The notes beneath the pieces are model-generated. The model saw only the letters and a program-made list of their open reading frames with translations. It searched no databases and had not been told where the DNA came from. Positions 15,134 to 59,714 of a stretch of 64,000 nt of DNA are shown here, piece by piece. The position numbers and the translations under genes are program-made. Origin of the DNA: an uncultured delta proteobacterium. GTDB taxonomy: Bacteria > Desulfobacterota > Desulfobacteria > Desulfobacterales > JAFDCJ01. The stretch spans positions 224,001-288,000 of the forward strand of contig CAVYNY010000010.1 in NCBI GenBank assembly GCA_963769935.1, read 5' to 3'. Numbering within the stretch: the first letter of the stretch is position 1; every line of letters begins with the position of its first letter.

Positions 15134-16393
15134 TTAACCAACCTGGTGATTCAAACCGGCCACCACCTGGGAAATATGACAGACTTTGGTCTTCAGCTCA
15201 TGCCGGCGAATGCCGTAGGACAACTGAATCATGCATGCCGGACAGGAAGTCACCAGCAAATCCGCATCGGTTTTTTTGAGATTTTCCATTTTCCGATCCA
15301 GCACCCTCTGGGACAGCTCATAATGGGAGAGTGCATAGGAGCCGGCTCCGCCGCAGCACCAATCCGCTTCGGGAAGCTCTCTATACTCAACACCTTCAAT
15401 TTTTTTAAGAATCTCTCGCGGTTCTTTGGTGATCTTTTGCCCGCGCGATGCATGGCAGGGATCATGATAGGTGACGACCACCGGAGCCTGCTTTTTTGCC
15501 GCCAGGTTGTCATTTGAAAATATCAACTCCACCGCATCCCGAAAACGCGGGGCTATATTTTCCGCCTGCGCCTGGCGTTCGTCGCCGGCAAAGATAGCCG
15601 GATATTTTTTCAAAAAGGATGCACAGCTTGAGCAATCCGTAACAATGACATCAAAATTATCGGAGGATAAGACATCCAGGTTTTTTGCGGCCAGCTTTTT
15701 GGCAGCGTCCAGGTCGCCATAGGAATGGGCCGGCAAACCGCAACAGCAATTATTCAGCAGAGTAACCGTTTTACCGATTTTTTTCAATAGCTGCAGCGTG
15801 GCTTCACCGGCTTCCTGTTGAATGACATCGACACCGCAGCCCACAAAGTAGCCGATGTGCTGCGTCTCTCCGCTGCCTTCGTAAACTCCGGGTTTGATGC
15901 GATCCCTAAACGGCAAGGGCGGAAGCTTTTCAATGATGCCTTCGGCCCGGGCAAAATCGCGGCCGAAAACCCGCAGCAGGCCCAGGGCGCGGGCCAGGCT
16001 GGATACGCCCGTGTTTTTCCCCAGCGCAACGGCGCGCGCCGCCAGATGCAACCGGCGGGGATAGGGTAGCAGATAATCAAAGAGCATCTTGTGAATAGGT
16101 TTGCGGTCAACCTTTTCAAGATATTCTGACCGGGCTTTAATCACCAGATCGGATGTGGGAACGGCCGGAAAGCAATTGGCCGTGCAGGCCCCACAACCCA
16201 GACAGTCAAAGAGCGGATCTTCGAGCTCTTTGTTCCAATCCAAACGCCCTTCGATGAGGGCCCGCAAAAGGGCCAGCCGGCCGCGGGCAACGCCGGATTC
16301 ATGACCGGTGGATCGAAATATCGGACAGGCAACCTGGCAGAAACCGCACTTGTTGCACTGTGAAATTTCATCATAGTATTTAGATATGTCCAT
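15134..16393 (-). CDS. glcF: Glycolate/D-lactate oxidase iron-sulfur subunit (two 4Fe-4S plus two CCG domains)
   Basis: CNKCGFCQVACP, CLGCGACTANC, CCGLP, YHDPCH and CCGGAGSY motifs. Confidence 0.88.
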   Translation of the reverse strand: MDISKYYDEISQCNKCGFCQVACPIFRSTGHESGVARGRLALLRALIEGRLDWNKELEDPLFDCLGCGACTANCFPAVPTSDLVIKARSEYLEKVDRKPIHKMLFDYLLPYPRRLHLAARAVALGKNTGVSSLARALGLLRVFGRDFARAEGIIEKLPPLPFRDRIKPGVYEGSGETQHIGYFVGCGVDVIQQEAGEATLQLLKKIGKTVTLLNNCCCGLPAHSYGDLDAAKKLAAKNLDVLSSDNFDVIVTDCSSCASFLKKYPAIFAGDERQAQAENIAPRFRDAVELIFSNDNLAAKKQAPVVVTYHDPCHASRGQKITKEPREILKKIEGVEYRELPEADWCCGGAGSYALSHYELSQRVLDRKMENLKKTDADLLVTSCPACMIQLSYGIRRHELKTKVCHISQVVAGLNHQVG

Positions 16394-16430
16394 TAAGAAT
16401 CCATTCCTTATTTCAAAATCAGCAAGCTTA

Positions 16431-16585
16431 GGGTTCACGAAAAAATTAATTCACAGTTTTGGCGTTGAGGCGCCCGCCCGGCAAGGCGCGAAAACGCAGG
16501 AATATCTGGATATTCCGAGCTTTCGCAACGCAGCCGGGCGGGATGCAGCGGCGTATAAAATGTGAAGTTATTTTTGAGTGAGCCC
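16431..16585. mobile_element. MITE-like non-autonomous element
   Basis: 25-bp imperfect terminal inverted repeats (20/25 match), TTA on both flanks, internal GC-rich hairpin, no transposase. Confidence 0.7.
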
Positions 16586-16643
16586 TTAGCCGGCTTAACT
16601 CTCAATCCGATACCCTTCGCGCTATGCTCTTTGCGCTATGCGC

Positions 16644-19235
16644 TTATACTTTCCCGGGCAGTCGACCGGGTGCAAAGATATTATCAGGATCAAGCTCAGC
16701 CTTTATCTTGTGAATAATCTTCCAAGCTGCTTGGGGCCGCCCGAACACGTCGCTGCGCTTTCTAAAATCATCGGGAGCCTTTTCCAACAGCAAATGTCCG
16801 TCATTTTCCGAGGCGAGACTGCATATCCTGTTCCATTGCTCTTCGCTCAGCTCCTCAAGACCGGCCAGTATCCTGCCGCAGCCGGAATCTAAAAATACAT
16901 TCGACAGCGACAGATTGTCATCAAGTGTCCTGAGGAAGCCGGCACACCGGTTCAATAGAAAATCACCCCGCAGGATGAAGGATGATCGTGCCAGTTTTTC
17001 GTAAATTTCACCAAAGGCGCCCTCGTGCACCGGATAGTCGGATTGCTGCATCACCTTCAGCCGGCCTTTCTGCAGCATGCTGCTGCATTTTTCGAGCTGA
17101 TAGTCGACGGTTTGGGAAAACCCTTCAAAACCGACGACGATATTCCAGATGCTGCGGTCAGCTTCGGCTCCCGGAGGATTTCCGGGCAGGCAGGTCACAA
17201 AAACCGGCTGGCAGTTGGACTTAAGAACCTCAAGGGCCGCGGCGGTGCATGCATCCAGCGAACCTTCGGCGGTTATCGCGGCACAGCGCTGCGGCAGAGT
17301 CGATACCCGCCAGGTGGCTTGCGTGATAAAACCGAGTGTTCCGGCCGAGCCGGTGATCAGACGGGTGATATCGTAACCGGCGACATTTTTAACCACCCTG
17401 CCGCCCGCAGATATCAAATTGCCGGCACTGTTGATGAAACGCAGACCCAGCAGAAGATCGCGCGGTGCGCCGTAGAGCAGACGTTCCGGTCCGCAGGCTG
17501 CCAGTGCAACCAGCCGGCCGATGGTGGAATTTTCTTTGAAAAAGGGCGGTCGAATCGGCAGCCACTGCTTGTGCTCCTGTAATTTTTCCTGCAGCGCTTT
17601 TAAAGTCATGCCCGTCCCTGTGGTAATCACCTGATTGGGCGGATCATACTCGATGACATCTGACAGGGAAGCACTTGCAAGATGCAGGGCATCGGGGGCC
17701 GACAGATTGCCGTATTGACTGTAGGTTCCGCCGCCCACGGGAATCACCTTCTGTCTCCGGGAGGCTGCGCTCTTGATCTGGGCCACAATTTCGGCGTCGG
17801 CGCCGTTGCCGGAAACGCCGCGGACCGCTTCTTCTTTATCGTCTTCTTTGGGCGGGGGAATCACCTTGCCGGGGTTGAGAATATTTGAGGGATCGAACGC
17901 ACGTTTCAATGCGCGCTGAACCATGAAATCATTTTCCGAAAAAACCATGCGCATGGCTTCCCGTTTCTCCAGCCCGATTCCGTGCTCACCGGATATGGTA
18001 CCACCCAGATCCACACAGGCTTGCATAATTTCCCAGCCGGCTTTTTCGACCCGGTGCAGCTGATCCTTGTCTCTGGAATCAAACAGCAGCAGCGGATGCA
18101 GATTGCCGTCGCCGGCATGAAAGACATTGCCGTGTTGACAGCCGTATTTTTTGGTAATCTCGGCCACCTTGGCCAGAGCCTCCGGCAATTTCGTGCGGGG
18201 CACGGTGGCATCGTTGACCAGATAATTCGGCGCCAGGCGGGCAACGGCACCGAAAGCACCTCGTCTGCCCTGCCATAGCCGGTTGCGCTCCGCATTGTCC
18301 TTGGCTTCCTGGATGTTGCGGCAATTGGTTTGCATGCAGATTTCCTGGATGCGCAGCGCCTGTTCCTTCAGGCCGGCTGCCGGACCTTCCACTTCAATGA
18401 TCAGAACGGCAGCGGCATCCCGCGGATAGCCGCAGGCATAGCTGTCCTCCACAGCTTTTATAATTGTGGCGTCCATCATTTCCAGCGTGTTGGGCAGGAT
18501 GCCGGCGGAAATGATGCCGGATACGGATTTTGCTGCATCGGCAATCGATTCGTAGATTGCCAGCATCGTGATGACCTTCTCTGCTTGGGGCAAAATGCGC
18601 ACTGTGATCTCCGTGACGATAGCCAGGGTGCCCTCGCTGCCGACCATGGCGCCGCGCAAATCCAGACCCGGCGGGTCAAGCGCGGCACCACCGATTCGCA
18701 TAATTTCACCATCCGACAGGATCATTTCCATTCCCAGGATATGATTGGTGGTTACCCCGTATTTCAGACAGCGCGGGCCACCCGAATTTTCACCGATGTT
18801 TCCGCCAATGGTCGAGACTTTCTGACTGGCGGGATCCGGTGCATAAAAATACCCCAAGGCTGCTGTAGCATCCTGCAGTTCCAGGTTGGTCACCGCCGGT
18901 TGAACCACCGCATAGCGGCTTTCGGGATAGATCCCCAGAATTCGATTCAGACGGGAAAGACAGATGATCAATCCCTGATCAGCCATAATCGTGCCGCCCG
19001 ATAGGTTGGTTCCAAATCCGCGGGGCACAAAGGCGACGGCTGCCCGGCGTGCGGCCCGCACGATCCGGGCGACCTGATCGCCATTGGCGGGAAAAACCAC
19101 AACACCGGGTTTTCCTTTGGCCAAAGAAGCATCATAAGAGTATAGTTCAGAGATAGTTCGAGACTTCGAAACCTGCTCTTTGCCGACAATGCTTTCCATC
19201 TCACGAATAAAAGTATCCGATATCATTTGGCTCAC
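16644..19235 (-). CDS. glcD: FAD-linked glycolate oxidase GlcD-GlcE fusion
   Basis: N-half PRGFGTNLSGG, PDPASQ, FHAGDGNLHP, GEHGIG; C-half GGRVVKNVAGYD and C-terminal LDPDNIFAPGR. Confidence 0.88.
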   Translation of the reverse strand: MSQMISDTFIREMESIVGKEQVSKSRTISELYSYDASLAKGKPGVVVFPANGDQVARIVRAARRAAVAFVPRGFGTNLSGGTIMADQGLIICLSRLNRILGIYPESRYAVVQPAVTNLELQDATAALGYFYAPDPASQKVSTIGGNIGENSGGPRCLKYGVTTNHILGMEMILSDGEIMRIGGAALDPPGLDLRGAMVGSEGTLAIVTEITVRILPQAEKVITMLAIYESIADAAKSVSGIISAGILPNTLEMMDATIIKAVEDSYACGYPRDAAAVLIIEVEGPAAGLKEQALRIQEICMQTNCRNIQEAKDNAERNRLWQGRRGAFGAVARLAPNYLVNDATVPRTKLPEALAKVAEITKKYGCQHGNVFHAGDGNLHPLLLFDSRDKDQLHRVEKAGWEIMQACVDLGGTISGEHGIGLEKREAMRMVFSENDFMVQRALKRAFDPSNILNPGKVIPPPKEDDKEEAVRGVSGNGADAEIVAQIKSAASRRQKVIPVGGGTYSQYGNLSAPDALHLASASLSDVIEYDPPNQVITTGTGMTLKALQEKLQEHKQWLPIRPPFFKENSTIGRLVALAACGPERLLYGAPRDLLLGLRFINSAGNLISAGGRVVKNVAGYDITRLITGSAGTLGFITQATWRVSTLPQRCAAITAEGSLDACTAAALEVLKSNCQPVFVTCLPGNPPGAEADRSIWNIVVGFEGFSQTVDYQLEKCSSMLQKGRLKVMQQSDYPVHEGAFGEIYEKLARSSFILRGDFLLNRCAGFLRTLDDNLSLSNVFLDSGCGRILAGLEELSEEQWNRICSLASENDGHLLLEKAPDDFRKRSDVFGRPQAAWKIIHKIKAELDPDNIFAPGRLPGKV

Positions 19236-20051: not shown

Positions 20052-20264
20052 CTATTCCATTACAATCAGAACAGCCTCTGCTTCCACTGCATCACCTTTT
20101 TTGCAGTTCACTTCTTTTACCGTACCGGAGGCCTCGGCCACTATGGGCAATTCCATTTTCATTGCCTCGATGATGACAACTTCTTCACCTTCCTGGACAC
20201 TGTCACCTACCTTTACCTTAACCTCAATAACCTTTCCTCCCATCGGCGATTTAACTTCACTCAC
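20052..20264 (-). CDS. Stand-alone biotin carboxyl carrier protein (70 aa)
   Basis: EAMKM biotinylation motif; GTG start after GGAGG RBS. Confidence 0.92.
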   Translation of the reverse strand: MSEVKSPMGGKVIEVKVKVGDSVQEGEEVVIIEAMKMELPIVAEASGTVKEVNCKKGDAVEAEAVLIVME

Positions 20265-20397
20265 GGCTGATTCCTCCTCTATCTTTATTTGCATTTAACA
20301 GCAAAGCAATTGCGGCTGGCCGCAAATTGCCCACCCTAACACTTTACATTCTTAGAACCGGCTGATTCATGATCGAGCCAATTCAAAATTAACCTCT

Positions 20398-20877
20398 TTA
20401 GGCTTTGGCGGGCGCCCTTTTCCCTTCCATTTTTTTGACGGATCGCGAAATGATCGCGCCGGAAACGGACATGCCGACCAGAAGAACAAGAAGCACGATA
20501 AAAACGCCGAAAAATCGTAAAATAAGGGTCCCGATGATCCAGGTCCAGTTGTCCTTCGTAATCACAACCAGGGCGCCCTTCGCATCATCCTTGGAGATTG
20601 TGATGGAATGCCATTTCAGATTTCCATCATCCTCGATGTAAGTGGCATCCTTCCAATTGCGATATTTGATATCTTTAAATTGTTCCAGTGCCTTTTTATA
20701 GTACTGGAGAACCTCGTCATGGGTTTTCCCGGAGTTCAGCTCCAATCTTTCCTTGGTTTTACTGATTTGCACGGCTCCCGGGATCACCGGCGCACCTAAA
20801 AAGTCATCGGCCCGGGACCATCCGGATACAGACACAATCCAACACACAATGAGCGTTAACAATATGATCTTTTTCAT
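20398..20877 (-). CDS. OadG-like membrane subunit with signal peptide and extracytoplasmic domain
   Basis: MKKIILL signal peptide, soluble domain, C-terminal TM RFFGVFIVLLVLL; lies between oadB and the biotin carrier gene. Confidence 0.6.
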   Translation of the reverse strand: MKKIILLTLIVCWIVSVSGWSRADDFLGAPVIPGAVQISKTKERLELNSGKTHDEVLQYYKKALEQFKDIKYRNWKDATYIEDDGNLKWHSITISKDDAKGALVVITKDNWTWIIGTLILRFFGVFIVLLVLLVGMSVSGAIISRSVKKMEGKRAPAKA

Positions 20878-20926
20878 TTTCCGTCCATTCAAATTTCGAT
20901 GAGTGGTTGAACTTTTAAAACGGCTA

Positions 20927-22072
20927 TCAATCAAACATGGCGATAAACATACCGGCTGCGGCCGCCGACCCGATAACACCGGCGAGATTGGGTCCCATGG
21001 CGTGCATCAGCAGATGGTTTGTCTTATCGTATTTCGTACCCTGAACCTGGGATACCCGGGCCGCCATGGGAACGGCGGAAACCCCGGCCGAACCGATCAA
21101 GGGGTTGATCTTTTCTTTTAAAAAGAGATTCATGATCTTCACCGTGGCAATACCGCCGACGGTGCAGACACCAAAGTCAATCAGCCCCAGACCGAAAATG
21201 AAAAGCGGTTTCCAGCTCAGGAAGTTGTCGGCACTCATGGTTGCGCCGACCGAAACCCCCAGAAAAATGGTCACGATGTTCATCAATGCGCCCTGGGCAG
21301 TCTCGGTGAGCCGGCCGACAACCCCGCTTTCCTTCATCAGGTTGCCCAGCATGAACATGCCCATCAACGGCATGACAGACGGCACCAGCAGTGCGATAAT
21401 AGCGGCCGTAACCAGGGGAAACAGTATCTTTTCCTGCCGTGAGACGGGCCGCAGCTGGCGCATTCGTATCTTGCGCTCCGCGGGGGTGGTCATCCACTTC
21501 ATGATGGCCGGTTGGATCAGCGGCACCATGGCCATGTAGGAATAGGCCGCCAGCGCATTCGGACCGAGCAGCTGCGGCGCCAGGTGCTGGGTCAGATAGA
21601 TGGTCGTCGGACCGTCGGCCCCGCCGATGATGCCCACCGACGCCGCCTCCTTGAGGGTGAAGCCGGCCAGCACGGTGCCCGTAAAGGTGACGAAAACGCC
21701 CAATTGCGCTCCGGCTCCGACGAGCAGCGTTTTGGGATTGGCTATCAGCGGACCGAAATCGGTCATGGCGCCCAACCCCAGGAAGATGACACAGGGAATC
21801 ACCTCCCATTGCAGTCCGTAGTGATAAAATATCTCCAACAGATGGCGGTTGCCATCGGCTGATATTCCCATCATGGGCACCAAGGGAAAATTGACGATAA
21901 AAATCCCGAATCCAATGGGCAGAAGCAACAGGGGTTCAAATTTTTTGGCGATGGCCAAATAGATGAAAAACGAGGCAACCCCCCACATGATGATGACGTT
22001 CCAGTGGAAATTGAACACTCCGGTAGTATAGAGGATACCCCTCAGCATATCCAAAATTTCATTCGCAGTCAT
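20927..22072 (-). CDS. oadB: Na+-translocating decarboxylase beta subunit
   Basis: FEPLLLLPIGFG, GIIGGADGPT, AAYSYMAMVP, GVSAVPMAARV and HAMGPN motifs. Confidence 0.95.
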   Translation of the reverse strand: MTANEILDMLRGILYTTGVFNFHWNVIIMWGVASFFIYLAIAKKFEPLLLLPIGFGIFIVNFPLVPMMGISADGNRHLLEIFYHYGLQWEVIPCVIFLGLGAMTDFGPLIANPKTLLVGAGAQLGVFVTFTGTVLAGFTLKEAASVGIIGGADGPTTIYLTQHLAPQLLGPNALAAYSYMAMVPLIQPAIMKWMTTPAERKIRMRQLRPVSRQEKILFPLVTAAIIALLVPSVMPLMGMFMLGNLMKESGVVGRLTETAQGALMNIVTIFLGVSVGATMSADNFLSWKPLFIFGLGLIDFGVCTVGGIATVKIMNLFLKEKINPLIGSAGVSAVPMAARVSQVQGTKYDKTNHLLMHAMGPNLAGVIGSAAAAGMFIAMFD

Positions 22073-22087
22073 TTCGCAACCATCTCC

Positions 22088-23584
22088 TTATTGCATTGTC
22101 ATGCACGCCTGTTCGATAGCGGCTGCCATCGCCGCATCCTCTTTACGGATGTCTTCCAGGGTTTTGGGTTTAACCGCCTGCGGCCTTTCTTCCAGGCCAT
22201 ATTTCCACTTAAGGTACTGCTCGCCGGTGCTGGGATAAAGCGCATAGATAAGCAGGTCAAAATCGTCTTTGGCCAAGTCGCCGATCTTCTTTTTATCGGC
22301 TGCCAGCTCCGGTTCCAGGTAATCGGCCGCCCGGCCCGTGACCGGTGTCTCGCCCCGTTTGTAGCCTTTTAGCACCTTTTTGCGTACTTCGGGATCCACC
22401 GGCGTGGGCGTATCGCCATATAGGCCATACACCAGGTCCTTAACCTCGTTGGTCACCATTTTATACCTGCCGAAGAGCACGTTTAGCACCGCCTGAACCC
22501 CGACAATTTGGCTGGTCGGTGTGACCAGCGGCGGGTTTCCCAGTTCTTTGCGCGTCACCGCCACTTCTTTGAAAACCTCCGGCAGCCGATCCAGGGCTTT
22601 GGCTTCTTTCATTTGGTTGACCAGATTGGAGAGCATCCCGCCCGGAACCTGATGCGCCAGAACCCCGGTGTCGATGACCGACATTTTGTGCTTGGACAAA
22701 TAATCCCGATACTTGGGAGCAACGGTTTCAATATAGTCGCCCAGTTCAAGCAGCAGGCCGAGGTCAAATCCCGGATCGCGTTTGGTCCCGTATAAAGTCG
22801 CCACAATCGGCTCGACGGCAGGCTGGGAGGTCCGCAAAGCAAAGGGCGCCAGGCAGGTGTCTACAATGTCCACTCCGGCTTTGATGGCCTCCAGATAGAT
22901 CATGGAAGCCATACCGCTGGTGTAGTGGGTATGCAGATGGATTGGAATCGTGATCTCTTTTTTCAATTCCGTTATAATTTTGGCGATATCGAACGGCGAC
23001 ATGATACCGGCCATATCCTTAAGGCAAAGCGAATCGGCTCCCATGGCCTGTATCTCTTTGGCCTTGGTCTTGTAATAGTTCAGATTGAACACCTCGCCGC
23101 CCATGCGCCTCTCGGTCAGCGAATAGCAGATGGTGCCCTGAAAATGCTTGCCATTGGCCTTGATCCGCTCCACCACGGTCTCAAAATTACGAAAATCATT
23201 GAGGGCGTCAAATACCCGAAAAACGTCTATGCCGACCTCGCTGGATTTGTCCACGAACAACCTGGCGACATCATCGGCATAATTACGATAACCCACCAGA
23301 TTTTGTCCTCTCAAAAGCATGGAAAACGGGGTCTTTTTGATATGCTGCTTCAAAGTCCGCACCCGCTCAAACGGGTCCTCGCCGAGAAACCGATGCATGG
23401 TATCAAAAGTGGCTCCGCCCCATACCTCCATGGCCCAAAATCCCACGCTGTCCATCTTCTCCGCAATGGGGAGCATATCTTCGGTCCTCATCCTTGTCGC
23501 CAGCAAGGACTGATGGCCGTCTCTAAAGGTGTTGTCTTGAATCTTAATGGGATTTTGGGGTCCCTCTTCTAAATAATCATTCAT
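22088..23584 (-). CDS. oadA: Oxaloacetate decarboxylase alpha / pyruvate carboxyltransferase subunit without a biotin domain
   Basis: RDGHQSLLATR, WGGATFD, LKDMAG, HLHTH, QVPGGM and LVTPTSQIVG motifs; no MKM. Confidence 0.88.
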   Translation of the reverse strand: MNDYLEEGPQNPIKIQDNTFRDGHQSLLATRMRTEDMLPIAEKMDSVGFWAMEVWGGATFDTMHRFLGEDPFERVRTLKQHIKKTPFSMLLRGQNLVGYRNYADDVARLFVDKSSEVGIDVFRVFDALNDFRNFETVVERIKANGKHFQGTICYSLTERRMGGEVFNLNYYKTKAKEIQAMGADSLCLKDMAGIMSPFDIAKIITELKKEITIPIHLHTHYTSGMASMIYLEAIKAGVDIVDTCLAPFALRTSQPAVEPIVATLYGTKRDPGFDLGLLLELGDYIETVAPKYRDYLSKHKMSVIDTGVLAHQVPGGMLSNLVNQMKEAKALDRLPEVFKEVAVTRKELGNPPLVTPTSQIVGVQAVLNVLFGRYKMVTNEVKDLVYGLYGDTPTPVDPEVRKKVLKGYKRGETPVTGRAADYLEPELAADKKKIGDLAKDDFDLLIYALYPSTGEQYLKWKYGLEERPQAVKPKTLEDIRKEDAAMAAAIEQACMTMQ

Positions 23585-23645: not shown

Positions 23646-23933
23646 CTATTTCACCGACTTTCGCTTGGACTGGATGGTCGCGTCTTTATCTCGGCGGTCA
23701 TCCACCTTCAGGTCGATGGAAATCCTCCGGGCACCTGCATCCAGGTGGGCCTGATGCACTTTCTTTACCAGAAGGAACAAAGCGTCTAAATCCGGCACTT
23801 CAATACAGGTAGACATCCCGCCGATCTCATAATGATAACCGGACTCTTTGATGATCTCGATGCCCTTTTTGACGTAACGGCTCAAGCTGGTGCCCTCCCC
23901 GATGGGATATACCGATAGTTGTGCGAGGATCAT
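23646..23933 (-). CDS. MTH1187/YkoF-family thiamine-binding protein
   Basis: LSVYPIGEGTSLSRYV, GMSTCIE and LKVDDRRDK pattern. Confidence 0.85.
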   Translation of the reverse strand: MILAQLSVYPIGEGTSLSRYVKKGIEIIKESGYHYEIGGMSTCIEVPDLDALFLLVKKVHQAHLDAGARRISIDLKVDDRRDKDATIQSKRKSVK

Positions 23934-24036: not shown

Positions 24037-24952
24037 TTACATGCCAAACCGCATGCCTGCTTTCAGACCCGCCTGCCTGGCAAATTCATCGGCATCCAGT
24101 TTAGCGCCCTTCTCCGCCTTCTTCATCTTGCCGACTTTCAACGCCCCGCCGTTGAGGGCAACGACTACTTCACCGCCCTCGATACCGACGATCTGTCCAG
24201 GCTCACTTCTCCTGGTCCGTCTCGATCAACTGCGCTTGGTAAAATTTAACTTTCTCGCCTGCGAGGGTCGAATGTGCACCCGGCTGAGGATCGCAGCCCC
24301 GGATCAGATTGTAAACCTCCCGGGCCGGTTTTGACCAGTCAATTTCGGCATACCGGTCGTCGCAGGGCGGCTCGTAAGTGGCCAGCGCGTGATCCTGAGG
24401 TATTTTGGGGGCCTTGCCGCTTTTAATAAGATCGACTGCCTCGACAAGGGCGTCGATGCCCATCGGGAGAAGCCTGTTGAAATAAATCGATCCGGTCGTG
24501 TCATCCGGTGCAATTTCTACTTCCTTCTGCAAAAGAATGGGTCCGGTATCAATACCTTTGTCTACCCACAGAATAGTCAGCCCGGTGCGGGTGTCTCCCT
24601 GGATAATGGCCCAGTTTATGCCGCTGGCCCCGCGGTGTTTCGGCAGCAGGGAGGGATGATAGCATATGGTGCCGATGGAAGGAATTTCGAGAAGACTCTC
24701 CGGTATGATATCGGTTACGAAGGCAAGCATCACCAGATCCGGTTTTAATTCCAGGAATGCTTGCCGCACCTCGGCATCCTGCATGCGGTTGGGCTGAAAA
24801 AGAGCTTTGCCTGAATTTTCGGCCAGAGTTTTCATCGCCTGACCCCGTTTGTCGTTAGGGCAAAAGACCGCGACAATTTCTTCGCCCCTTTGGATAAGAG
24901 CATCCAATGTCTTCTCTCCAAAAGGGCCTTGGCCGACCAAAATTGTTCTCAT
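24037..24952 (-). CDS. Formyltransferase-family protein resembling the 10-formyl-THF hydrolase domain of ALDH1L; frameshift near 24205-24212
   Basis: ILVGQGPFG, YHPSLLPKHRGAS and WVDKGIDTG motifs; C-terminus (EPGQIVGIEGG...GMRFGM) continues in another frame. Confidence 0.8.
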
Positions 24953-25051
24953 CGTCCACACCTGCTCTATTAATGGGTGCCGGGAGTCTTAATCGTGGCT
25001 TATTTGGTTCTCTCCGAGCCGGAGGCCGGCTTTTCAGGATCAGGTAGTAGC

Positions 25052-25182: not shown

Positions 25183-26079
25183 TTACTTTGCCTTGGATTC
25201 TGCTGCTTTAATTTCCGCCATGGTTCGCAGAATCTGCAGGGCATTCTCATAAACCGGGGTATCCACCATTTTACCTTTGTAGGAAACCGCGGCGGACCCC
25301 TTGGCGATACCCTCCTCTTCAAAAACCTTCTTGACCCCCTCGGCCCACTCGACATCGGCGGCGGAAGGGGTGTAGATCTCATGGGAAGGTCCAATCTGGC
25401 TGGGGTGAATCAGCATCCGGCCTTCGTAGCCCATCTGACGGCCTTCGCGGGTGCTCTTTTTGAATGCCTCCACGTCACTGATGTTCACAAAGGGACAATC
25501 AATGGCCACACACCCGGCCGCGCGGGCGGCAACAGCCGTGTGGTATCTGGCGTACAGCTGCTCCTGACCTTCCGAGGTGAGGGTCACACGCATATCCTTG
25601 GTATAATCCACCGCCCCGAATATAAGGGAGTTGACCCGCGGACTGGCACTGGCAGCAGGGTAAGCGTTCATCACACCTTTGGCGGTTTCAATCAGCAACT
25701 GGATGCCCACACTGCCTACCTTCATGCCTCTTCTCTGCTCCAGTTCCTCCAGCTTCCAGTCCAGACGTTTGACATTATCGGCGCTACCGCATTTTGCCAG
25801 ACATACTCCGTCAAGGCCGGGATGCACAATGGCTTCCAGGTCATCGTTGGTCATCTGGGTTTCCCAGTTGTTAACCCGAACATAAAGGGAAGGGGCCAGC
25901 TGTTTTCCCCGGCTGGCTTTCAGATACTCTTGTACCATGACCCGGCCTCTGGGCTTTTCCGCCGGCGGTACCGAATCCTCCAAATCCAAGGTCAGAATAT
26001 CACACACGATTTCCGGGGCCTTGCCGACCATCTTCTCATTGTTGCTGGGTGTGTAAAACACCGATCTCATAACTGGCAT
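25183..26079 (-). CDS. CoA-ester lyase, CitE/malyl-CoA lyase family
   Basis: RSVFYTP, LDLEDSVP, YVRVN, LIETAKG, FGAVDY, IHPSQI and GKMVDTP motifs. Confidence 0.9.
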   Translation of the reverse strand: MPVMRSVFYTPSNNEKMVGKAPEIVCDILTLDLEDSVPPAEKPRGRVMVQEYLKASRGKQLAPSLYVRVNNWETQMTNDDLEAIVHPGLDGVCLAKCGSADNVKRLDWKLEELEQRRGMKVGSVGIQLLIETAKGVMNAYPAASASPRVNSLIFGAVDYTKDMRVTLTSEGQEQLYARYHTAVAARAAGCVAIDCPFVNISDVEAFKKSTREGRQMGYEGRMLIHPSQIGPSHEIYTPSAADVEWAEGVKKVFEEEGIAKGSAAVSYKGKMVDTPVYENALQILRTMAEIKAAESKAK

Positions 26080-26147: not shown

Positions 26148-27044
26148 CTATAGATTAATGAGCTCTTTAATTTTGGGGGCAATTTCCTCGGGACTTTCGA
26201 CGACATGCGCCTTGGCCTCGGTCAGGGCCTTGATTTTACCCTGAGCGGTGCCCCGCCCGCGCTCTACGATGCTGCTGGCATGGGAAAACCGCATTCCCTC
26301 CGGTGCCCACGCGCCCGCGATATAGACAACCAGCGGCTTGGTGAACTCACCTTTGGCAACCGTCTCGGCCGCTTCCTCTTCCAGGGTTCCGCCGATTTCA
26401 CCAAAAATAGCCACTGCTTTGGTCTGTTCATCTTTTTCGAACAGCTTGAGCACATCGGACATGGTCAGGCCTAATACCGGCTCCGTTCCGATATGCAGGG
26501 CCGTGCTGATACCAAGGCCGGCCACCTTCAGGGCCCAGGGCACCGTTCCCGACTGACCGCCGCTGCGGGAGATGACCCCGACCGGACCCGGTTCGAATAG
26601 CATGCTGGCCCAATCCACGCTGCCGCCCAGCCAACCCATGGCGGCTTTGCCGGGACTGATGATTCCGAGGCTGCCGGGGCCCAGTATTTTGCCGCCGTTT
26701 TTCATCGCATAGTGGACCATGGCAATCACATCATGAACCGGGATGCGTTCCACCGGCGACACCACAAATTTGATGCCCGCGTCGATGGCTTCGTAAACCG
26801 CACTTTTTAACGCCGGGCCGGGAATGAAAGTCACGCTGGCATCCACCATCCCTTCATTATCGATGGCTTGCTGAACCGTGTCGTACACCGGCAGACCATG
26901 CACCTCTCCGCCGCCGCGCCCCGGAGTCACGCCGGCGACCACCTTGGTTCCATATTCTTTCATAAATTGGGTCCGCAGGGATCCTTCCCTGCCGGTCATT
27001 CCCTGGACAATGACCCTGGTATTTTCATCTAACAGTATTGACAT
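26148..27044 (-). CDS. Acid-CoA ligase (ADP-forming) alpha subunit, divergent SucD/MtkB/Ccs-like
   Basis: VIVQGMTG, VAGVTPGRGG, ISRSGG, FGEIGG; phospho-His motif RFSHASSIV. Confidence 0.88.
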   Translation of the reverse strand: MSILLDENTRVIVQGMTGREGSLRTQFMKEYGTKVVAGVTPGRGGGEVHGLPVYDTVQQAIDNEGMVDASVTFIPGPALKSAVYEAIDAGIKFVVSPVERIPVHDVIAMVHYAMKNGGKILGPGSLGIISPGKAAMGWLGGSVDWASMLFEPGPVGVISRSGGQSGTVPWALKVAGLGISTALHIGTEPVLGLTMSDVLKLFEKDEQTKAVAIFGEIGGTLEEEAAETVAKGEFTKPLVVYIAGAWAPEGMRFSHASSIVERGRGTAQGKIKALTEAKAHVVESPEEIAPKIKELINL

Positions 27045-27056
27045 ATCATCCCCCTG

Positions 27057-27341
27057 CTATGCTGTTCCGTGCTTTTTCCTGTACTCTGCCAGCCCCTCAA
27101 TGGGGACCTCGATGGTGATGGCCGCATTGCCCCTGAACCAACATTCGTATTCACAGGCAAGGCATTCGGTGCCTTTGCGCGCCAGTTCCTCGGCGGAACC
27201 TTCAACCGCCGGCTTGCCGTCTTTCAAAATCAGGATGCCGCGACTATATGTCTTGCAGGCCTCAACGCAGACATGGGTTTTGCAGCCTTTGCATTTTTCT
27301 TCATCAATGATGACTTTGATCGTTCTCTCGTTAAATTCCAT
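27057..27341 (-). CDS. Ferredoxin-like Fe-S protein
   Basis: CKGCKTHVCVEAC and TECLACEYEC Cys motifs; GAGGAG RBS. Confidence 0.82.
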   Translation of the reverse strand: MEFNERTIKVIIDEEKCKGCKTHVCVEACKTYSRGILILKDGKPAVEGSAEELARKGTECLACEYECWFRGNAAITIEVPIEGLAEYRKKHGTA

Positions 27342-27358
27342 AAGACGCTCCTCATGTT

Positions 27359-27486
27359 ATTGAATATTTTCCATTGAATATTGAATATTTATGGCCCGCC
27401 TCCGGCGGACCAATTTTAAAAAAATTAAAAACGACGGAGCGCAGCAACGTCCACAAATATTCAATCTCCAATATTCAATTTTCAAT
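27359..27486. repeat. Dispersed palindromic repeat, copy 1 (ATTGAAT/ATTCAAT arms, GC core)
   Basis: Homologous in inverted orientation to 59596-59714. Confidence 0.8.
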
Positions 27487-28732
27487 GTTTTTCCTTCCGG
27501 TATTCATCGACCAGGGCTCGCACCCTGCCGCCGATGAATTTGGCATCGTAAACATGCTCCCGATCATAGATCTCAATCCTGGCATCAAGACCCGCTAAAC
27601 CCTCTTTTAGAATCTGCTGGGATTCGGATTCCTTGTTGCCGCAAAGCAGAAGAACCACCGGAAAACCCGGACGTTTGGGGAGTTCCTCCCGCAAAGCCTT
27701 GACAATGCCATGGGCATGATGCCACTGTTCCTGATTCGCCATCATAAACCCGGCCAAAAAATAGCCTTCAATGCCCGGTATCGACATGATAAGCTTGACG
27801 ACCCGATAAACTTTGGAAGCCGTCGGGTTGCCGCTGGTGTCGGCATAATCGGCGACTTTCAAATTCACCTTGTTGAGGGCATCCATACCGAGCATGGCCG
27901 CGCCGCCGCCGATGCCGTGGTAACCGACATAACCGCCCTTGGCTACCTCCTGCGGTTCGGCCATCTGGGCCACATAACTGGTGCCGCGGAAATCGCTCTC
28001 TTCAAACGACCAGGCGGTGAGATCAAAGTCGGTGGGCTCTTTGAGAAACTCACGGCCGATTTTGATCCCCAGATCGGGGTGTCTGAATAGGGCTTGGTCA
28101 TCGATCGCCATACGGCAATCGGCTGCCAGAACCTTGCCGTCGCGGGTCAGCACGAGGGGGTTGATTTCCAATGTCCGGCAGTCCATCTGCTGGAAGGCTT
28201 TGAAAAGTTTGAAAACGACATCGGCAATCGGCCTGAGCGTCTTACCCTTTACGCCCATTGAAGAGACCAGATTCAAGGTGTCATAGGGCATGAGTCCCTT
28301 GATGACATCCACATTCATGACAGCGATCTTATCCGCCGGCACCGACTCGATGTCCATGCCTCCCTCGGGGCTGAACATCAGCACCGGACCTCTGACCTCC
28401 TGGGCGGAGTTGATAATCACACCGGCATAAAATTCCTGGGCGATATCCAGCTTTTCTTCGACAAGGACCTGTTTGACTTCAAGCCCTTTGACCTGCATCC
28501 CCAGAATCGCTCGGGCGGCCGCTTCGGCCTCATCAGGCGTGTCGGCAAATTTCACCGCTCCGGATTTCCCCCTGCCGCCAGCCCAAACTTGCGCTTTAAC
28601 CACGACGGGCTTGGCCAGCTTTTCTGCCGCCTGCCTGGCCTCCTGGGGGGATTTCACTACCATCCCTTCAGGGATCGGAATACCGGATTTCTTAAAAACT
28701 TCCTTTCCCTGATACTCAAAAAATTTTGCCAT
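27482..28732 (-). CDS. Acid-CoA ligase (ADP-forming) beta subunit, ATP-grasp, ACL/Ccs-like substrate domain
   Basis: EYQGKE, VVKAQVWAGGRGKSG, EGGMDIE and LEINPL motifs; C-domain IGGGAAM...ADTSGNPT...MAN. Confidence 0.88.
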   Translation of the reverse strand: MAKFFEYQGKEVFKKSGIPIPEGMVVKSPQEARQAAEKLAKPVVVKAQVWAGGRGKSGAVKFADTPDEAEAAARAILGMQVKGLEVKQVLVEEKLDIAQEFYAGVIINSAQEVRGPVLMFSPEGGMDIESVPADKIAVMNVDVIKGLMPYDTLNLVSSMGVKGKTLRPIADVVFKLFKAFQQMDCRTLEINPLVLTRDGKVLAADCRMAIDDQALFRHPDLGIKIGREFLKEPTDFDLTAWSFEESDFRGTSYVAQMAEPQEVAKGGYVGYHGIGGGAAMLGMDALNKVNLKVADYADTSGNPTASKVYRVVKLIMSIPGIEGYFLAGFMMANQEQWHHAHGIVKALREELPKRPGFPVVLLLCGNKESESQQILKEGLAGLDARIEIYDREHVYDAKFIGGRVRALVDEYRKEKH

Positions 28733-29011: not shown

Positions 29012-29782
29012 ATGGTCAGACCAACTTTCCAACCCATTAAACAGGAAAAAATCTCGGCGAAAATCGCAGAACAAATAAAATCGCTCATCACAAAGGGTGA
29101 ATTGAAACCCGGTGATGTTCTACCCCCCGAAAGAGAACTCGTCAAGATTTTTAAAGTGAGTCGTGCCTCCCTGCGTGAAGCACTGAAATCACTGACGGGG
29201 ATGGGTTTTCTGGAGATTACCCAGACGCATCGGACCATTGTAAAATCACTGGCCGCCGGCCGGATTACCGAACCTCTGGACTATCTTATCAGGGAGGACA
29301 TTCACACCGTCCTTGAGCTGATCGAAGTCCGAAAGGCAATCGAGATATGGAATGCATATTATGCAGCAGAAAGGGCTAAGGATGAGGATGTTGCCCGACT
29401 CGAAAACAGCGTGGCATCAATGCGGAAAAAAATTGAACAGCACAGCAGTGCGGTGGAAGAAGACGCCAATTTTCATATCGCCGTCTCCCAGGCCGCGCAC
29501 AACAAAATACAGACCCATTTGATGTTCTCCATATATGACCTACTTAAAGAATCCATCGCCAACTACTTCGATAACTTTAAACTGAATTATATACTTGATC
29601 AGCACTCGCGGGTGGTTGAAGCCATTAGAAAAAAAGATCCGGTGCTGGCCAGCAGAAGAATGCGGGAACACCTAGACTACGTCGAGTCTGTGGTAAAGGA
29701 ACATGCCGCTTCCCAAATTACTGAGTCCGACTGGCAAAGTTCAGCCAATGCGATAGTCGGACGAAGCTACGGCAGCAACTAA
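29012..29782 (+). CDS. GntR/FadR-family transcriptional regulator
   Basis: LKPGDVLPPEREL...VSRASLREAL HTH; FCD domain with DANFH and QHSRVVEAI. Confidence 0.93.
   Translation: MVRPTFQPIKQEKISAKIAEQIKSLITKGELKPGDVLPPERELVKIFKVSRASLREALKSLTGMGFLEITQTHRTIVKSLAAGRITEPLDYLIREDIHTVLELIEVRKAIEIWNAYYAAERAKDEDVARLENSVASMRKKIEQHSSAVEEDANFHIAVSQAAHNKIQTHLMFSIYDLLKESIANYFDNFKLNYILDQHSRVVEAIRKKDPVLASRRMREHLDYVESVVKEHAASQITESDWQSSANAIVGRSYGSN
29013..29023. promoter_or_regulatory. FadR-type operator TGGTCAGACCA overlapping the regulator start (autoregulation)
   Basis: TGGT-N3-ACCA palindrome matching the site at 28781. Confidence 0.65.
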
Positions 29783-30820: not shown

Positions 30821-32131
30821 CTAGTACAGGAGGCTGGGCAGCCACAGTATGATTTCCGGGAAGAACATGACCAGAACCACCCCAAAAATCTGCAGGCACA
30901 TGAAAGGGGCCGCAGACTTCCAGATATCCGTCGTTGAGATCTCGGGCGGTGCCACCCCCTTTAAATAGAAAAGCGCATAACCGAAAGGCGGCGAAAGAAA
31001 GGAAATCTGCAAATTGGTGGCAAAGAGCACGCCGAACCAAACCGGATCAAAACCCAGGTGCCGCACAATGGGACCGAAAATGGGGACACACAGCATGATG
31101 ATGCCGACCCAGTCAATGAAACATCCCAGGAACATCAGAATAAACTGCATGACAATGATGATGCCCCATCTTCCCAAACCGGAGCCTAGCAGCATCTGGG
31201 TCACAAATTCGCCGCCGCCCACCATGACGTATAAACCCACAAATATATTGGCGCCAAAAATGGTCCACATAACCATGGCCGAAGATTTAAGCGTATTTTC
31301 AGCGGCCTGCACGACGCCTTTCCATTTCAGCTTGCCCTGTATGGCGGTCATTATGATAGCACCGGCGGCTCCCACGCCGGCCGCCTCGGTGGGCGCCGCG
31401 ATACCGGTAAATATGGTGCCCAGCACCAGAAATATGAGAATGGCAGGCGCGACGATCCGCGCCAGGAGTTTCAGTCTGGCCTTAAGGGGCAGGCGATCTT
31501 CCGGCGGAACCGGCGGCCCCAGGGTGGGATTAATATAACATCGGATCGTAACATAAGCTATGAACAACGACGACAGCATTATCCCGGGCATAATGGCCCC
31601 GGCATAAAGCTGGCCGATGGAGCTGTTATCCACCAGGCCGTAGACGATCAGCATGACGCTGGGAGGAATCAGGATTCCCAGCGTGCCGCCGGCCAAGATG
31701 GAGCCGCAGGCAATATATTTGTCATATTGTCGCCTGAGCATTTGCGGCAGTGCGATAACGCCCATGGTAACTTCGCTGGCGCCGATGACGCCCACCATGG
31801 CCGCCAGCATCGTACAGGCCATTACCGTCGCTGTTGCCACGCCGCCTTTAATGGCCCCCATCCACTGGTATACCAGTTCATAGAGCTCCTCGATAATACC
31901 CGATCTTTCCAGAATGCAGGCCATGAAGATAAACAGGGGGATGGCTGCCAGCAGATAATTCATCATAAGCCCGAAAATTCTGGTGGAAACCAGGTTTACA
32001 GCGGCCGGGCCCTGAAGCAGGGCGGTAAAAATCACGCCCACCGAGCCGCAGGCAAATGCCACGGGCAGTCCCAGTCCCAACAGGAAGAACAAGGATCCGA
32101 ACATCAATACGGTAATCCATTCAATACTCAT
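30821..32131 (-). CDS. dctM: TRAP transporter large permease
   Basis: LAAIPLFIFM, GTLGILIPPS, PTEAAGVG and SFLSPPFG motifs. Confidence 0.93.
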   Translation of the reverse strand: MSIEWITVLMFGSLFFLLGLGLPVAFACGSVGVIFTALLQGPAAVNLVSTRIFGLMMNYLLAAIPLFIFMACILERSGIIEELYELVYQWMGAIKGGVATATVMACTMLAAMVGVIGASEVTMGVIALPQMLRRQYDKYIACGSILAGGTLGILIPPSVMLIVYGLVDNSSIGQLYAGAIMPGIMLSSLFIAYVTIRCYINPTLGPPVPPEDRLPLKARLKLLARIVAPAILIFLVLGTIFTGIAAPTEAAGVGAAGAIIMTAIQGKLKWKGVVQAAENTLKSSAMVMWTIFGANIFVGLYVMVGGGEFVTQMLLGSGLGRWGIIIVMQFILMFLGCFIDWVGIIMLCVPIFGPIVRHLGFDPVWFGVLFATNLQISFLSPPFGYALFYLKGVAPPEISTTDIWKSAAPFMCLQIFGVVLVMFFPEIILWLPSLLY

Positions 32132-32676
32132 GTCATTTCCCTCCCTGTTATCGCTACATGTAAATCCCGAATCCACCAGACGATACCCTGCAGTAACAGC
32201 ATCAGAGCCCCGAACGGCATCATGAATTTAACCGGATAATAGGGAGGGGACCAGTCGGTCAGAGACAGTTCTCCCGGAACCGTTATGCCCAGGAAGGTTC
32301 CGCCCCCATGCATGGTTTGAGAACTCCAGTAAAAGGTCCAGCAGGTCCAGAGCAGCACCCCGTTGAAAATAAAGAAAAAAATGCTGGTGAAAAGATCCAG
32401 AAAGGCCCGTGTCCTTCTTGAACGGGTGGCATAGAAGACGTCCACCCTCACATGCGCGCGGTGATAGTGACAATAACCCGCTACAAACATGTACTGAATG
32501 GCAAATAAAATGGTCATGGTTTCATGACCCCAGTTGGTCGGCAATCCGAAAACATAGCGCATCACAACTTCAAATGTGATCACTGAAACCGCCGCCAGTG
32601 TTACCCCGACCATCATCTTGCCGATAAAGATGTTGGTTTTCTCGATGGCGATCATGAATTTTCTCAAACGTTTCAT
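32128..32676 (-). CDS. dctQ: TRAP transporter small permease
   Basis: EVVMRYVF and HVRVDVF motifs, 4 TM; overlaps the dctM start by 4 bp. Confidence 0.92.
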   Translation of the reverse strand: MKRLRKFMIAIEKTNIFIGKMMVGVTLAAVSVITFEVVMRYVFGLPTNWGHETMTILFAIQYMFVAGYCHYHRAHVRVDVFYATRSRRTRAFLDLFTSIFFFIFNGVLLWTCWTFYWSSQTMHGGGTFLGITVPGELSLTDWSPPYYPVKFMMPFGALMLLLQGIVWWIRDLHVAITGREMT

Positions 32677-32767
32677 GGAATATCCTCACACTGCCCGAAA
32701 TTCCGATATCAAGTGCCTTAGGAATCCATTCCATTTCTGGATTCAGAACTGGAATATCTCCCCCCTA

Positions 32768-32804
32768 TAAAAAGATAGGGAAGGGATGCGAGCACCCCTT
32801 CCCG
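32768..32804 (-). terminator. Terminator/stabilising hairpin after dctP
   Basis: GGGAAGGG...CCCTTCCC stem followed by a T-rich tract on the minus strand. Confidence 0.55.
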
Positions 32805-32816
32805 TTAAAATTCGAA

Positions 32817-33968
32817 TTAAAATTCCAGTTTTTTACCGTCGTAATCGACCATATCCGCATCTGTAATATAGTCCATCTTGACGGATTTCATGTATGCCAG
32901 CTGGGACTTGAAGGCCTTCATCGCCCGCGGCGACTTCTTGGCCCACTTGACCCACATCGCCGGCGCAAACCGCCGGAACTTGGCAATGTCTTCTTCGGTC
33001 AGGCGGATGACCTCCACGCCCTGTTCTTTCTGAAACTTTTCAAAGGCCACGATATCGGCCGCCTGAATCGCCGTGTATTGGTCCCTGGAATGTTCGACCA
33101 TGGCCGCTTCCAGCAGCGCCTGCAGATGCGGCGGAATTTTCTTCCAGGAATTCATATTGATGGCAATTCCCATCAGGTCGACGGGCTGATGCAGGCACGG
33201 CGTCGACGGCGGACCCATGATGATGTACTTGGCGATTTCGCCGAATCCCAGGTTGTAGTTGATGGCGGCCCCCACGTAGTCGGCACCGTCGATAACGCCT
33301 TTTTCCAGGGCCGGGTAGACCTCGCCGCCCGGCAGCAGTACCGTGGCCACACCGGCGGCCCGGTAAATATCGGCGATGATACCGCCCGGGTAGCGGATCT
33401 TTTTGCCCTTGAAATCCTCAAAGTGCCGGATCGGCACCTTGGAGTGGATCAGGTTGTCGTCGTGCTGGATGGGGCCGATCCAGTACATGTTTTGTTCGCC
33501 ATAGGCCTCGCGGGCAAGTTCTTTGCCGCCCAGCACGGTATACCAGGTATCCCATTGATCCGGCCGGTCCATCCCAAAGGGATAGGACGACAGAAAGGTT
33601 GCCACCGGAATCTTGCCCGGCCAGTAAACCTCGAAGCAGTGCATGGAGTCGAAAACACCGGCCTTGACGGCATCAAACATCTCGAACGTGCCCACGATGG
33701 CGCCGGCCGGAAACCCCTCGACTACCAGTTTGCCCTCGGTCATATTGCCGACATTGGCACAAAACTCCTTGAATTTCGTAAAACCCAGGGTCCCGGCATC
33801 CCAGGCCGTCTGCATCTTGATGGTAATGGTTTCGGCAGCCGAAAGACGCATCACGGCCGGAAAACCGATCGAGCCTGCGGCAGCGCCGGCCACGGCGGCT
33901 GTCTTCAGGAATTTCCGGCGGGACAGTTTCTGGTTCTTTGTCTTGTCTTGCTTTACTTTTTCTGACAT
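32817..33968 (-). CDS. dctP: TRAP substrate-binding protein with Tat signal (TakP-like, 2-oxo/2-hydroxy monocarboxylate type)
   Basis: SRRKFLK Tat motif; KMQTAW, YWPGK, KIRYPGG and EVYPALEKGVID motifs. Confidence 0.9.
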   Translation of the reverse strand: MSEKVKQDKTKNQKLSRRKFLKTAAVAGAAAGSIGFPAVMRLSAAETITIKMQTAWDAGTLGFTKFKEFCANVGNMTEGKLVVEGFPAGAIVGTFEMFDAVKAGVFDSMHCFEVYWPGKIPVATFLSSYPFGMDRPDQWDTWYTVLGGKELAREAYGEQNMYWIGPIQHDDNLIHSKVPIRHFEDFKGKKIRYPGGIIADIYRAAGVATVLLPGGEVYPALEKGVIDGADYVGAAINYNLGFGEIAKYIIMGPPSTPCLHQPVDLMGIAINMNSWKKIPPHLQALLEAAMVEHSRDQYTAIQAADIVAFEKFQKEQGVEVIRLTEEDIAKFRRFAPAMWVKWAKKSPRAMKAFKSQLAYMKSVKMDYITDADMVDYDGKKLEF

Positions 33969-37837: not shown

Positions 37838-37988
37838 TCAGCGTCAGATCCCCCCGGACACCCGTGGCATATTTACCGACGACGTGTTAAATGGACTTGA
37901 TTGAATATTTTCGATTGAATATTGAATATTTAAGGTATTCTTTCTATTATAAAAATCGATCTAAAATGGTGAAAGAAACTATAATCTC

Positions 37989-59595: not shown

Positions 59596-59714
59596 ATTGA
59601 AAATTTAATATTGCATATTGAATATTTGTTGATGTCGCTCCACTCCGTCCTTATTAATATGGCCCCGCCGGAGGCGGGCCTTAAATATTCAATTTTCAGT
59701 CGAAAAAATTCAAT
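59596..59714. repeat. Dispersed palindromic repeat, copy 2
   Basis: Aligns end to end with the reverse complement of 27359-27486. Confidence 0.8.

Follow-up and report, generated by a model that had tools for sequence, protein, structure and literature searches.

The window analysed here is a 64,000-nucleotide stretch of DNA from an uncultured delta proteobacterium (assembly GCA_963769935.1, contig CAVYNY010000010.1, positions 224,001 to 288,000 of the forward strand). Three of its open reading frames (ORFs), in the order beta subunit, small cysteine-rich protein, alpha subunit (Table 1), encode a real, conserved three-part acid-CoA ligase that is to all appearance undescribed. A preliminary description made from the sequence had reported these three ORFs, a set of beta and alpha motifs and a 94-aa protein encoded between the subunits; all were found as described, and the 12 bp given between the stop of the small gene and the start of alpha agreed with the window ORFs. 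Each of the three genes is preceded by a purine-rich ribosome site. The gap between beta and the small gene is 140 bp in the window and is occupied by a 129-bp inverted-repeat element that is not part of the system and has 109 blastn matches in the window's genome, 34 of them 80 bp or longer; relatives have a median gap of 12 bp to either side of the small gene. The element is AT-rich and occupies intergenic gaps, with more copies near 59596-59714 and 37900-37935. A promoter and terminator scan of the locus returned nothing informative, and transcription or co-transcription was not demonstrated by contigs from one study's four metatranscriptome runs on sediment, which covered the cluster in 29-30 of 30 bins and a neighbouring control stretch in 20-30 of 30.

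The features of the SucCD/ATP-citrate lyase (ACL) superfamily are all present: an ATP-grasp beta subunit, a CoA-binding alpha subunit and a phospho-His loop. Pfam searches gave ATP-grasp_2 on beta, with two ACL domains matching below cut-off, and CoA_binding and Ligase_CoA on alpha. The beta C-domain motifs read IGGGAAM, YADTSGNPT and FMMANQEQWHHAHGIV, and the alpha loop RFSHASSIV. Beta G275-G277, D298-P303 and N333-H341 and alpha R252-S257, with the phospho-His H255, were invariant in 61/61 aligned orthologues, and the motifs are therefore not private changes of the window. SucCD shares the fold, the CoA-binding alpha and the phospho-His and supplied the best overall Protein Data Bank (PDB) matches; the window ligase differs in that the SucC acid-site motifs NGAGL, D-x-GGG and FGGI are replaced and both subunits fell under the family cut-offs. 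Beta scored 249 bits against a cut-off of 376 (TIGR01016) and 264 against 370 (NF001913), alpha 283 against 353 (TIGR01019) and 285 against 336 (NF004230), and beta was far under the MtkA cut-off (NF010647, 177 against 604). In the window's genome, which is 96.7% complete, one sucC on another contig scores above cut-off, and there is a second divergent paralogue. At L001:6795-10835 (contig C35 of this genome) lies a second divergent pair of SucCD-like genes that falls outside the SucC reference clade; its beta looks frameshifted, and its neighbours are a 2-hydroxyacid dehydrogenase, an HpcH aldolase and an alanine-racemase-like protein. A search of plasmids listed 117 records, and no clade member was among the best 40, all at most 36.5% identical.

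The preliminary description had also placed the ligase closer to ACL and citryl-CoA synthetase (CcsAB) than to SucC. This held for the active-site motifs and less clearly, if at all, for the sequence as a whole: in phmmer searches full-length beta matched Thermus SucC at 247 bits and CcsA at 174 bits, and its C-domain gave a tie between CcsA (42.1 bits) and Thermus SucC (41.8), followed by AclB (21.7) and E. coli (13.1). The A-N-[NF]-T loop of CcsA/AclB and the second Arg of RR(G/N)GP (T348 and R379 in ACLY, which we take to bind citrate) are replaced by ANQE and LLCGN in 60/60 split forms, in which beta and the small protein are separate. The catalytic-centre residues shared by CcsAB and ACL (GGG, Ser-Gly-x-Pro and alpha SGG) are present, the ligase GGG, S300 and alpha SGG matching ACLY G281-283, S308 and S663-G665 (PMC11365397, partial text).

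Phylogenetic analysis was done in IQ-TREE on 46 rows, a set with no authentic CcsA and with ACL on a long branch. In this tree 23 members with the motif [DE][TS]SG[NDS]P formed one clade (100/99), and a 13-row SucC clade including MtkA (100/100) and three AclB-type rows stood apart from it. A 112-row quick tree agreed with a separate clade, having dropped two thirds of the SucC-like or unclassified representatives, among them the motif variants P0242 and P0256, which fall inside the clade in the 46-row tree. Grouping of the window subfamily with MtkA was rejected (AU p 5.5e-44), as was a single group of all fused forms (AU p 5.8e-10), so that fusion or fission occurred more than once. An AU test placing the clade with the SucC and MtkA references (p 3e-76) was not used, four unlabelled SucC-like rows having been left outside it. 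Beta and alpha are an acid-CoA ligase of a separate clade outside SucC/MtkA, the branching for which the preliminary description had proposed to look. The family, with the small protein as a separate gene or a fused domain, occurs in records of Desulfobacterota, Chloroflexota and Bathyarchaeia, in which its database label is SucC.

Linkage of the small gene to beta was scored in two samples. A GTDB scan with the beta alignment gave 196 relatives, of which the best 80 were used, which biases this set towards close kin; a locus was scored if its contig extended 700 bp or more past beta. The small gene lay behind beta in 75/75 scorable loci and alpha directly after it in 74/74, with a CitE-family lyase gene next in 70/74; the small gene was retained in all 4 loci without CitE, and its start was visible in 2 of 5 further loci on short contigs. 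For an even draw, each alignment was run against 401 phylum genomes (E 1e-8 and 1e-95). Beta and the small protein had matches in one and the same set of 27 genomes, and all 30 beta matches had the small protein, 28 directly behind and 2 in frame; the one extra small-protein match was a fragment at a contig start, and there was no free copy. Kin among these genomes are not independent, and the count shows linkage and is not a statistic. The position of the small gene, which the preliminary description had made a test of its proposal, was thus conserved in both samples. In one Desulfobacterota family (f19) the module occurred in 11/11 sampled genomes, often flanked by two GlcD/GlcF-type gene sets.

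The domain is fused to the C-terminus of beta in 13 of the 150 best library representatives, one of them truncated. In a metagenome scan that started from a fused protein, 588 relatives were counted and the best 80 used: 79 loci had a complete fused ORF, all with 8 Cys, and one had no complete ORF; alpha lay within 900 bp downstream in 60/66. Two genomes carry both split and fused copies, the fused copy adjoining fumarase and fumarate reductase genes.

The small protein has the pattern C17-x2-C20-x4-C25-x3-C29 and G57-x2-C60-x2-C63-x3-C67, with 7 invariant Cys and not 8. Gly57 occupies the place of the first Cys of the second motif, and G57 with 7 Cys was found in 60/60 split forms, in which the two CxxCxxCxxxC motifs of a 2[4Fe-4S] ferredoxin are accordingly not both complete. 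Of 310 candidates 309 were homologues, with identities of 72-91% in the best 120. Its Pfam Fer4 matches were below cut-off, so its Fe-S nature is an inference; it matched OorD weakly (25.8 bits, cut-off 93), a PDB sequence search returned no match, and its Atlas neighbours carry Fer4, one close cluster having Bacillota as its most frequent known phylum. In fold searches with the model (pLDDT 63) the top rows were ferredoxin domains, none of them significant (E at least 0.08, Z at most 3.9). These weak Foldseek rows included archaeal RNA polymerase subunit D and ABCE1, whose ferredoxin-like Fe-S domains sit in non-redox enzymes; the host enzymes are other than a ligase, and the two are a precedent for a structural or regulatory Fe-S module. 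The small protein is likely to be ferredoxin-like, and Fe-S clusters are presumed.

The complex was modelled from own 61-row alignments with two 4Fe-4S ligands, in three runs and with 3 controls. The small protein-beta complex scored 0.86 in three runs and the best control 0.01, in a job that lay outside its calibration (own alignments, small-molecule ligands), which tells against it; the score mark is reached by 116/157 solved pairs and 2/215 mismatched pairs. The runs agreed in at least 97% of contacts, and partner pLDDT was at least 88. A complex model of alpha, beta and ferredoxin was among the checks suggested at the outset; the listed contacts of the small protein were to beta alone. The predicted interface comprises beta 235-249, 260, 304-319, 337-345 and 374-378 and small-protein residues 6-8, 32, 58-69 and 77-93, and conservation of the beta interface residues A305, Y309, R310 and K345 is 91-98% among 62 clade members and no more than 42% among 57 SucC-like rows. 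As the small protein has no solved sequence relative, the model is unlikely to be recalling a similar complex. The prediction supports binding of the small protein to the beta C-domain, and since the SGNP and ANQEQ loops are where the interface helices of beta begin, the module's place would be next to the acid site. The earlier proposal of a third Fe-S subunit of a separate ligase subfamily is supported by linkage, the beta fusions, the predicted complex and the clade of its own, and the small protein is very probably the third subunit of the ligase.

The standard ferredoxin pairing assigns C17/C20/C25/C67 to cluster I and C29/(57)/C60/C63 to cluster II. P0250 and P0251 have lost exactly C17/C20/C25/C67, P0257 has lost most Cys, and P0271 has Asp in place of C29; the domain is kept in P0250, P0251 and P0257. 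That the domain persists through such variation in its clusters is easier to reconcile with a structural or regulatory role than with an obligatory electron wire, and the ligase reaction itself would be a non-redox step. Most likely the Fe-S module stabilises or gates the beta C-domain beside the acid-binding loops, rather than carrying electrons. The window subfamily is without C57, and the resulting 3-Cys site lies at the modelled interface near the invariant H341. G57 and H341 occur together in 60/60 split forms and C57 and R341 in 79/79 of the main fused clade. A strict swap of His341 for the absent Cys57 was rejected, since C57 occurs together with H341 in three fused representatives and each of the two groups is a block of kin; ligation of the 3-Cys cluster site by H341 is a lead only.

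It is highly improbable that the small protein serves GlcDEF or a 2-oxoacid oxidoreductase as a free, KorD-like electron carrier and is merely co-transcribed with the ligase. The weak OorD match and the korABC genes that adjoin some loci would suit such a carrier; it is opposed by the fusions to beta, the predicted beta interface, the retention of the small gene where GlcD and CitE are absent and the lack of a free copy in the 401 genomes, and the korABC loci L062, L119, L150 and L151 have their own 8-Cys KorD. Constant linkage, the absence of free copies and the separate KorD likewise led to rejection of a chance neighbour or KorD substitute. At L005:4752-10068, L062:4715-10628 and L201 the three-gene ligase stands beside 2-oxoacid:ferredoxin oxidoreductase genes with no adjoining lyase; these are possibly re-purposed copies.

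The surrounding genes run in the order TRAP transporter, GntR regulator, beta, small protein, alpha, CitE, formyltransferase-like protein, thiamine-binding protein, Na+ decarboxylase module, methyltransferase, GlcDE and GlcF (Table 1).

Table 1. Position and assignment of the ligase genes and surrounding features, numbered within the window.
Feature	Position	Strand	Remarks
Ligase beta subunit	27482..28732	-	416 aa; ATP-grasp and C-terminal acid-binding domain; DTSGNP clade; HMM and PDB matches, tree
Ferredoxin-like protein, 7 invariant Cys	27057..27341	-	94 aa; predicted third subunit docking on beta C-domain
Ligase alpha subunit	26148..27044	-	298 aa; CoA-binding; phospho-His H255 in RFSHA; ACL-like SRSGG
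Inverted-repeat element between beta and small gene	27359..27487	.	129 bp; not part of system
CitE-family CoA-thioester C-C lyase, likely malyl-CoA lyase	25183..26079	-	HMM matches; follows alpha in 70/74 loci
Formyltransferase-like protein	24203..24961	-	252 aa here, ~303 aa in relatives; 36/56 loci
MTH1187-family thiamine-binding protein	23646..23933	-	HMM score above cut-off
Na+-translocating biotin decarboxylase module, variable accessory	20052..23584	-	HMM matches
Decarboxylase module, carboxyltransferase	22088..23584	-	
Decarboxylase module, beta	20927..22072	-	
Decarboxylase module, membrane protein	20398..20874	-	
Decarboxylase module, biotin carrier	20052..20294	-	
Glycolate-type 2-hydroxyacid dehydrogenase	15134..19235	-	GlcD-GlcE fusion 16644-19235; GlcF-like Fe-S subunit 15134-16438
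Divergent GntR/FadR regulator, PdhR/LldR/GlcC-like	29012..29782	+	HMM matches
TRAP transporter DctPQM	30821..33968	-	DctP nearest lactate-binding protein TTHA0766

GlcD passes the glycolate oxidase model TIGR00387 (597.5 bits, cut-off 567.9). A GlcD orthologue lies downstream in 45/56 scorable GTDB loci and an OadB-like gene in 7/56. Among the even-sample matches, 20 of the 29 others were examined: CitE was next in 17, Ccl in 2 and neither in 1, and GlcD was downstream in 12. The CitE protein of the window is the sole strong CitE-type match in its genome, and glyoxylate reductase-like and glyoxylate aminotransferase-like genes recur near the loci (below cut-offs). In the formyltransferase-like gene, RNA-library contigs of relatives are one base shorter near 24207, and the window may carry a frameshift there. 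A record titled Olavius-associated Delta 1 symbiont (L004) has the cluster at 90-94% identity, with the biotin-carrier gene as sole remnant of the decarboxylase module.

Desulfofustis glycolicus (L065) holds the whole cluster at 79-85% identity and uses the malyl-CoA pathway (PMC6313629, partial text), a route also found in Syntrophobotulus glycolicus and Moorella (HUC22-1), and the gene set of the window fits this route as drawn from physiology and enzyme assays (PMC6313629 and PMC8092247, partial texts). A membrane-bound glycolate/glyoxylate step has been described (PMC3156405, partial text). The window's genome has no malate synthase, no glyoxylate carboligase (Gcl) and no CitF above cut-off, and malic enzyme is present; CitF, the transferase of classical citrate lyase CitDEF, was not above cut-off in genome G004 either. 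Judged from gene context, glycolate would be imported by the TRAP transporter and oxidised to glyoxylate by GlcDEF, the CitE lyase would condense glyoxylate with acetyl-CoA to malyl-CoA, and the ligase would split malyl-CoA into malate and CoA with phosphorylation of ADP via alpha His255. Malate could then yield pyruvate and acetyl-CoA via malic enzyme, or pass through oxaloacetate and the Na+-pumping decarboxylase. Malyl-CoA is the best, not a proven, substrate candidate, and malyl-CoA chemistry in one direction or the other is probable. On balance, and by little, we favour an ADP-forming malate:CoA ligase with an Fe-S subunit that yields ATP in anaerobic glycolate oxidation.

The same three-subunit enzyme could also run in reverse, activating malate at the expense of ATP for cleavage to acetyl-CoA and glyoxylate, with the glyoxylate either reduced to glycolate by GlcDEF or drawn into biosynthesis. 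The two steps can proceed either way, ATP synthesis in S. glycolicus is coupled to the reduction of glyoxylate (PMC3156405, partial text), and the aminotransferase-like genes stand near some loci. This direction is nevertheless unlikely: uptake and oxidation accord with a TRAP importer of small 2-hydroxy acids and with a regulator of the GlcC/LldR-like type, and no other glyoxylate sink was found in the window's genome.

Several observations weigh against glycolate oxidation through malyl-CoA. The CitE protein is under every NCBIfam lyase cut-off, and among solved proteins it scores 126 bits with Deinococcus CitE, 116 and 104 with malyl-CoA lyases and 113 with human CLYBL. The nearest solved relative of DctP (2ZZV, 451 bits) binds lactate, and GlcD-family enzymes oxidise lactate too. 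D. glycolicus could also process glyoxylate through a glyoxylate carboligase, which it possesses. A GlcD orthologue is missing from 11/56 loci, with L005 and L062 lying by 2-oxoacid oxidoreductase genes and without CitE, and malate dehydrogenase is in two pieces in the window's genome (C4:37423-38224), an assembly error or a broken gene. Fused relatives pair with citryl-CoA lyase (44/47) and never with CitE or GlcD (0/47), so the family is not malate-specific. A ligase for citramalate or another 2-hydroxy-dicarboxylate, with a citramalyl-CoA-type lyase (pyruvate and acetyl-CoA) and GlcDEF acting on lactate, would agree with the lactate-binding relative of DctP and with a lyase as similar to CLYBL and RipC as it is to Mcl (RipC/Ccl HMM 147 bits). 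We regard it as improbable in view of the GlcD score above the glycolate oxidase cut-off, the recurrent glyoxylate-handling neighbours and the lack at these loci of an encoded onward route for pyruvate-derived citramalate.

The lyase after alpha in the fused loci is of citrate-synthase fold, and aconitase-like (20) and isocitrate-dehydrogenase-like genes (18) lie near the fused forms. In loci L089-L168 (e.g. L122:8001-15582, L160), L206 and L207 there is either a recurrent operon of beta-ferredoxin fusion, alpha, citryl-CoA lyase, HD-domain-like protein, LeuC/D-type aconitase and isocitrate/homoisocitrate-dehydrogenase-like genes, or fumarase and fumarate reductase neighbours. These fused loci are likely to be an unrecognised ATP-linked citrate or homocitrate module without the usual citrate-binding loop residues. 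For the window such neighbours, the match to the ACLY catalytic centre and the OadA/B module raise the reading of a citryl-CoA synthetase, with CitE as citryl-CoA lyase turning citrate into acetyl-CoA and oxaloacetate and the adjacent Na+-pumping decarboxylase using the latter. It has a low probability, the citrate-loop residues being replaced throughout the split forms and OadB being far rarer at the loci than GlcD; the fused clade is without the same residues too, which weakens the loop test.

Of the known systems, CcsAB with Ccl (Hydrogenobacter thermophilus, 6HXQ) shares with the window the ATP-grasp beta, phospho-His alpha, GGG loop, GNP loop, D-x-R-G linker and a separate CoA-thioester lyase partner, and fused relatives adjoin Ccl. 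It differs in having no Fe-S partner among the chains of the solved enzyme and in its ANNT and RRNGP loops, replaced here; the lyase of the window is CitE-type, and the full-length score to CcsA is below that to Thermus SucC. MtkAB with malyl-CoA lyase Mcl (serine cycle) likely carries out the same reaction pair, and differs in that MtkA nests within SucC; if the malate function holds, the ligase arose separately from MtkAB. None of the solved succinyl-, malyl- and citryl-CoA ligase structures searched has an Fe-S subunit, and a literature search, with subscription papers and supplements outside its scope, found no description of an Fe-S subunit of such a ligase or of its gene cluster. An archaeal fusion survey in mSystems mentions SucC/SucD and ACL fusions and, in its partial text, no ferredoxin fusion; its supplements could list one (PMC11237513). 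CCS/CCL was found in Aquificaceae and Leptospirillum among surveyed autotroph genomes, the partial text of that source mentioning no Fe-S subunit (PMC13147460). No paper was found that assigns genes to the anaerobic malyl-CoA pathway.

The malyl-CoA route by which anaerobes oxidise glycolate is known from physiology, and the cluster, present in a cultured type strain, supplies candidates for its genes. Fused members with citryl-CoA lyase as a neighbour suggest that ATP-linked cleavage or formation of citrate has gone unrecognised in lineages other than Aquificota and Leptospirillum; this would affect the calling of tricarboxylic acid (TCA)-type carbon flow in genomes. A wider reading, speculative and rather doubtful, is that of a widespread old family of ATP-conserving hydroxy-acid CoA ligases with their own Fe-S module, in which, in the subfamily of the window, an open or His341-filled 3-Cys cluster would gate activity by redox state or oxygen or aid substrate binding, and which would also contain the missing genes of anaerobic glycolate oxidation; if true, this would be a redox-gated enzyme of substrate-level phosphorylation. 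Use of glycolate by anaerobic sediment bacteria, with a gain of ATP through the ligase and its neighbouring lyase, is likely.

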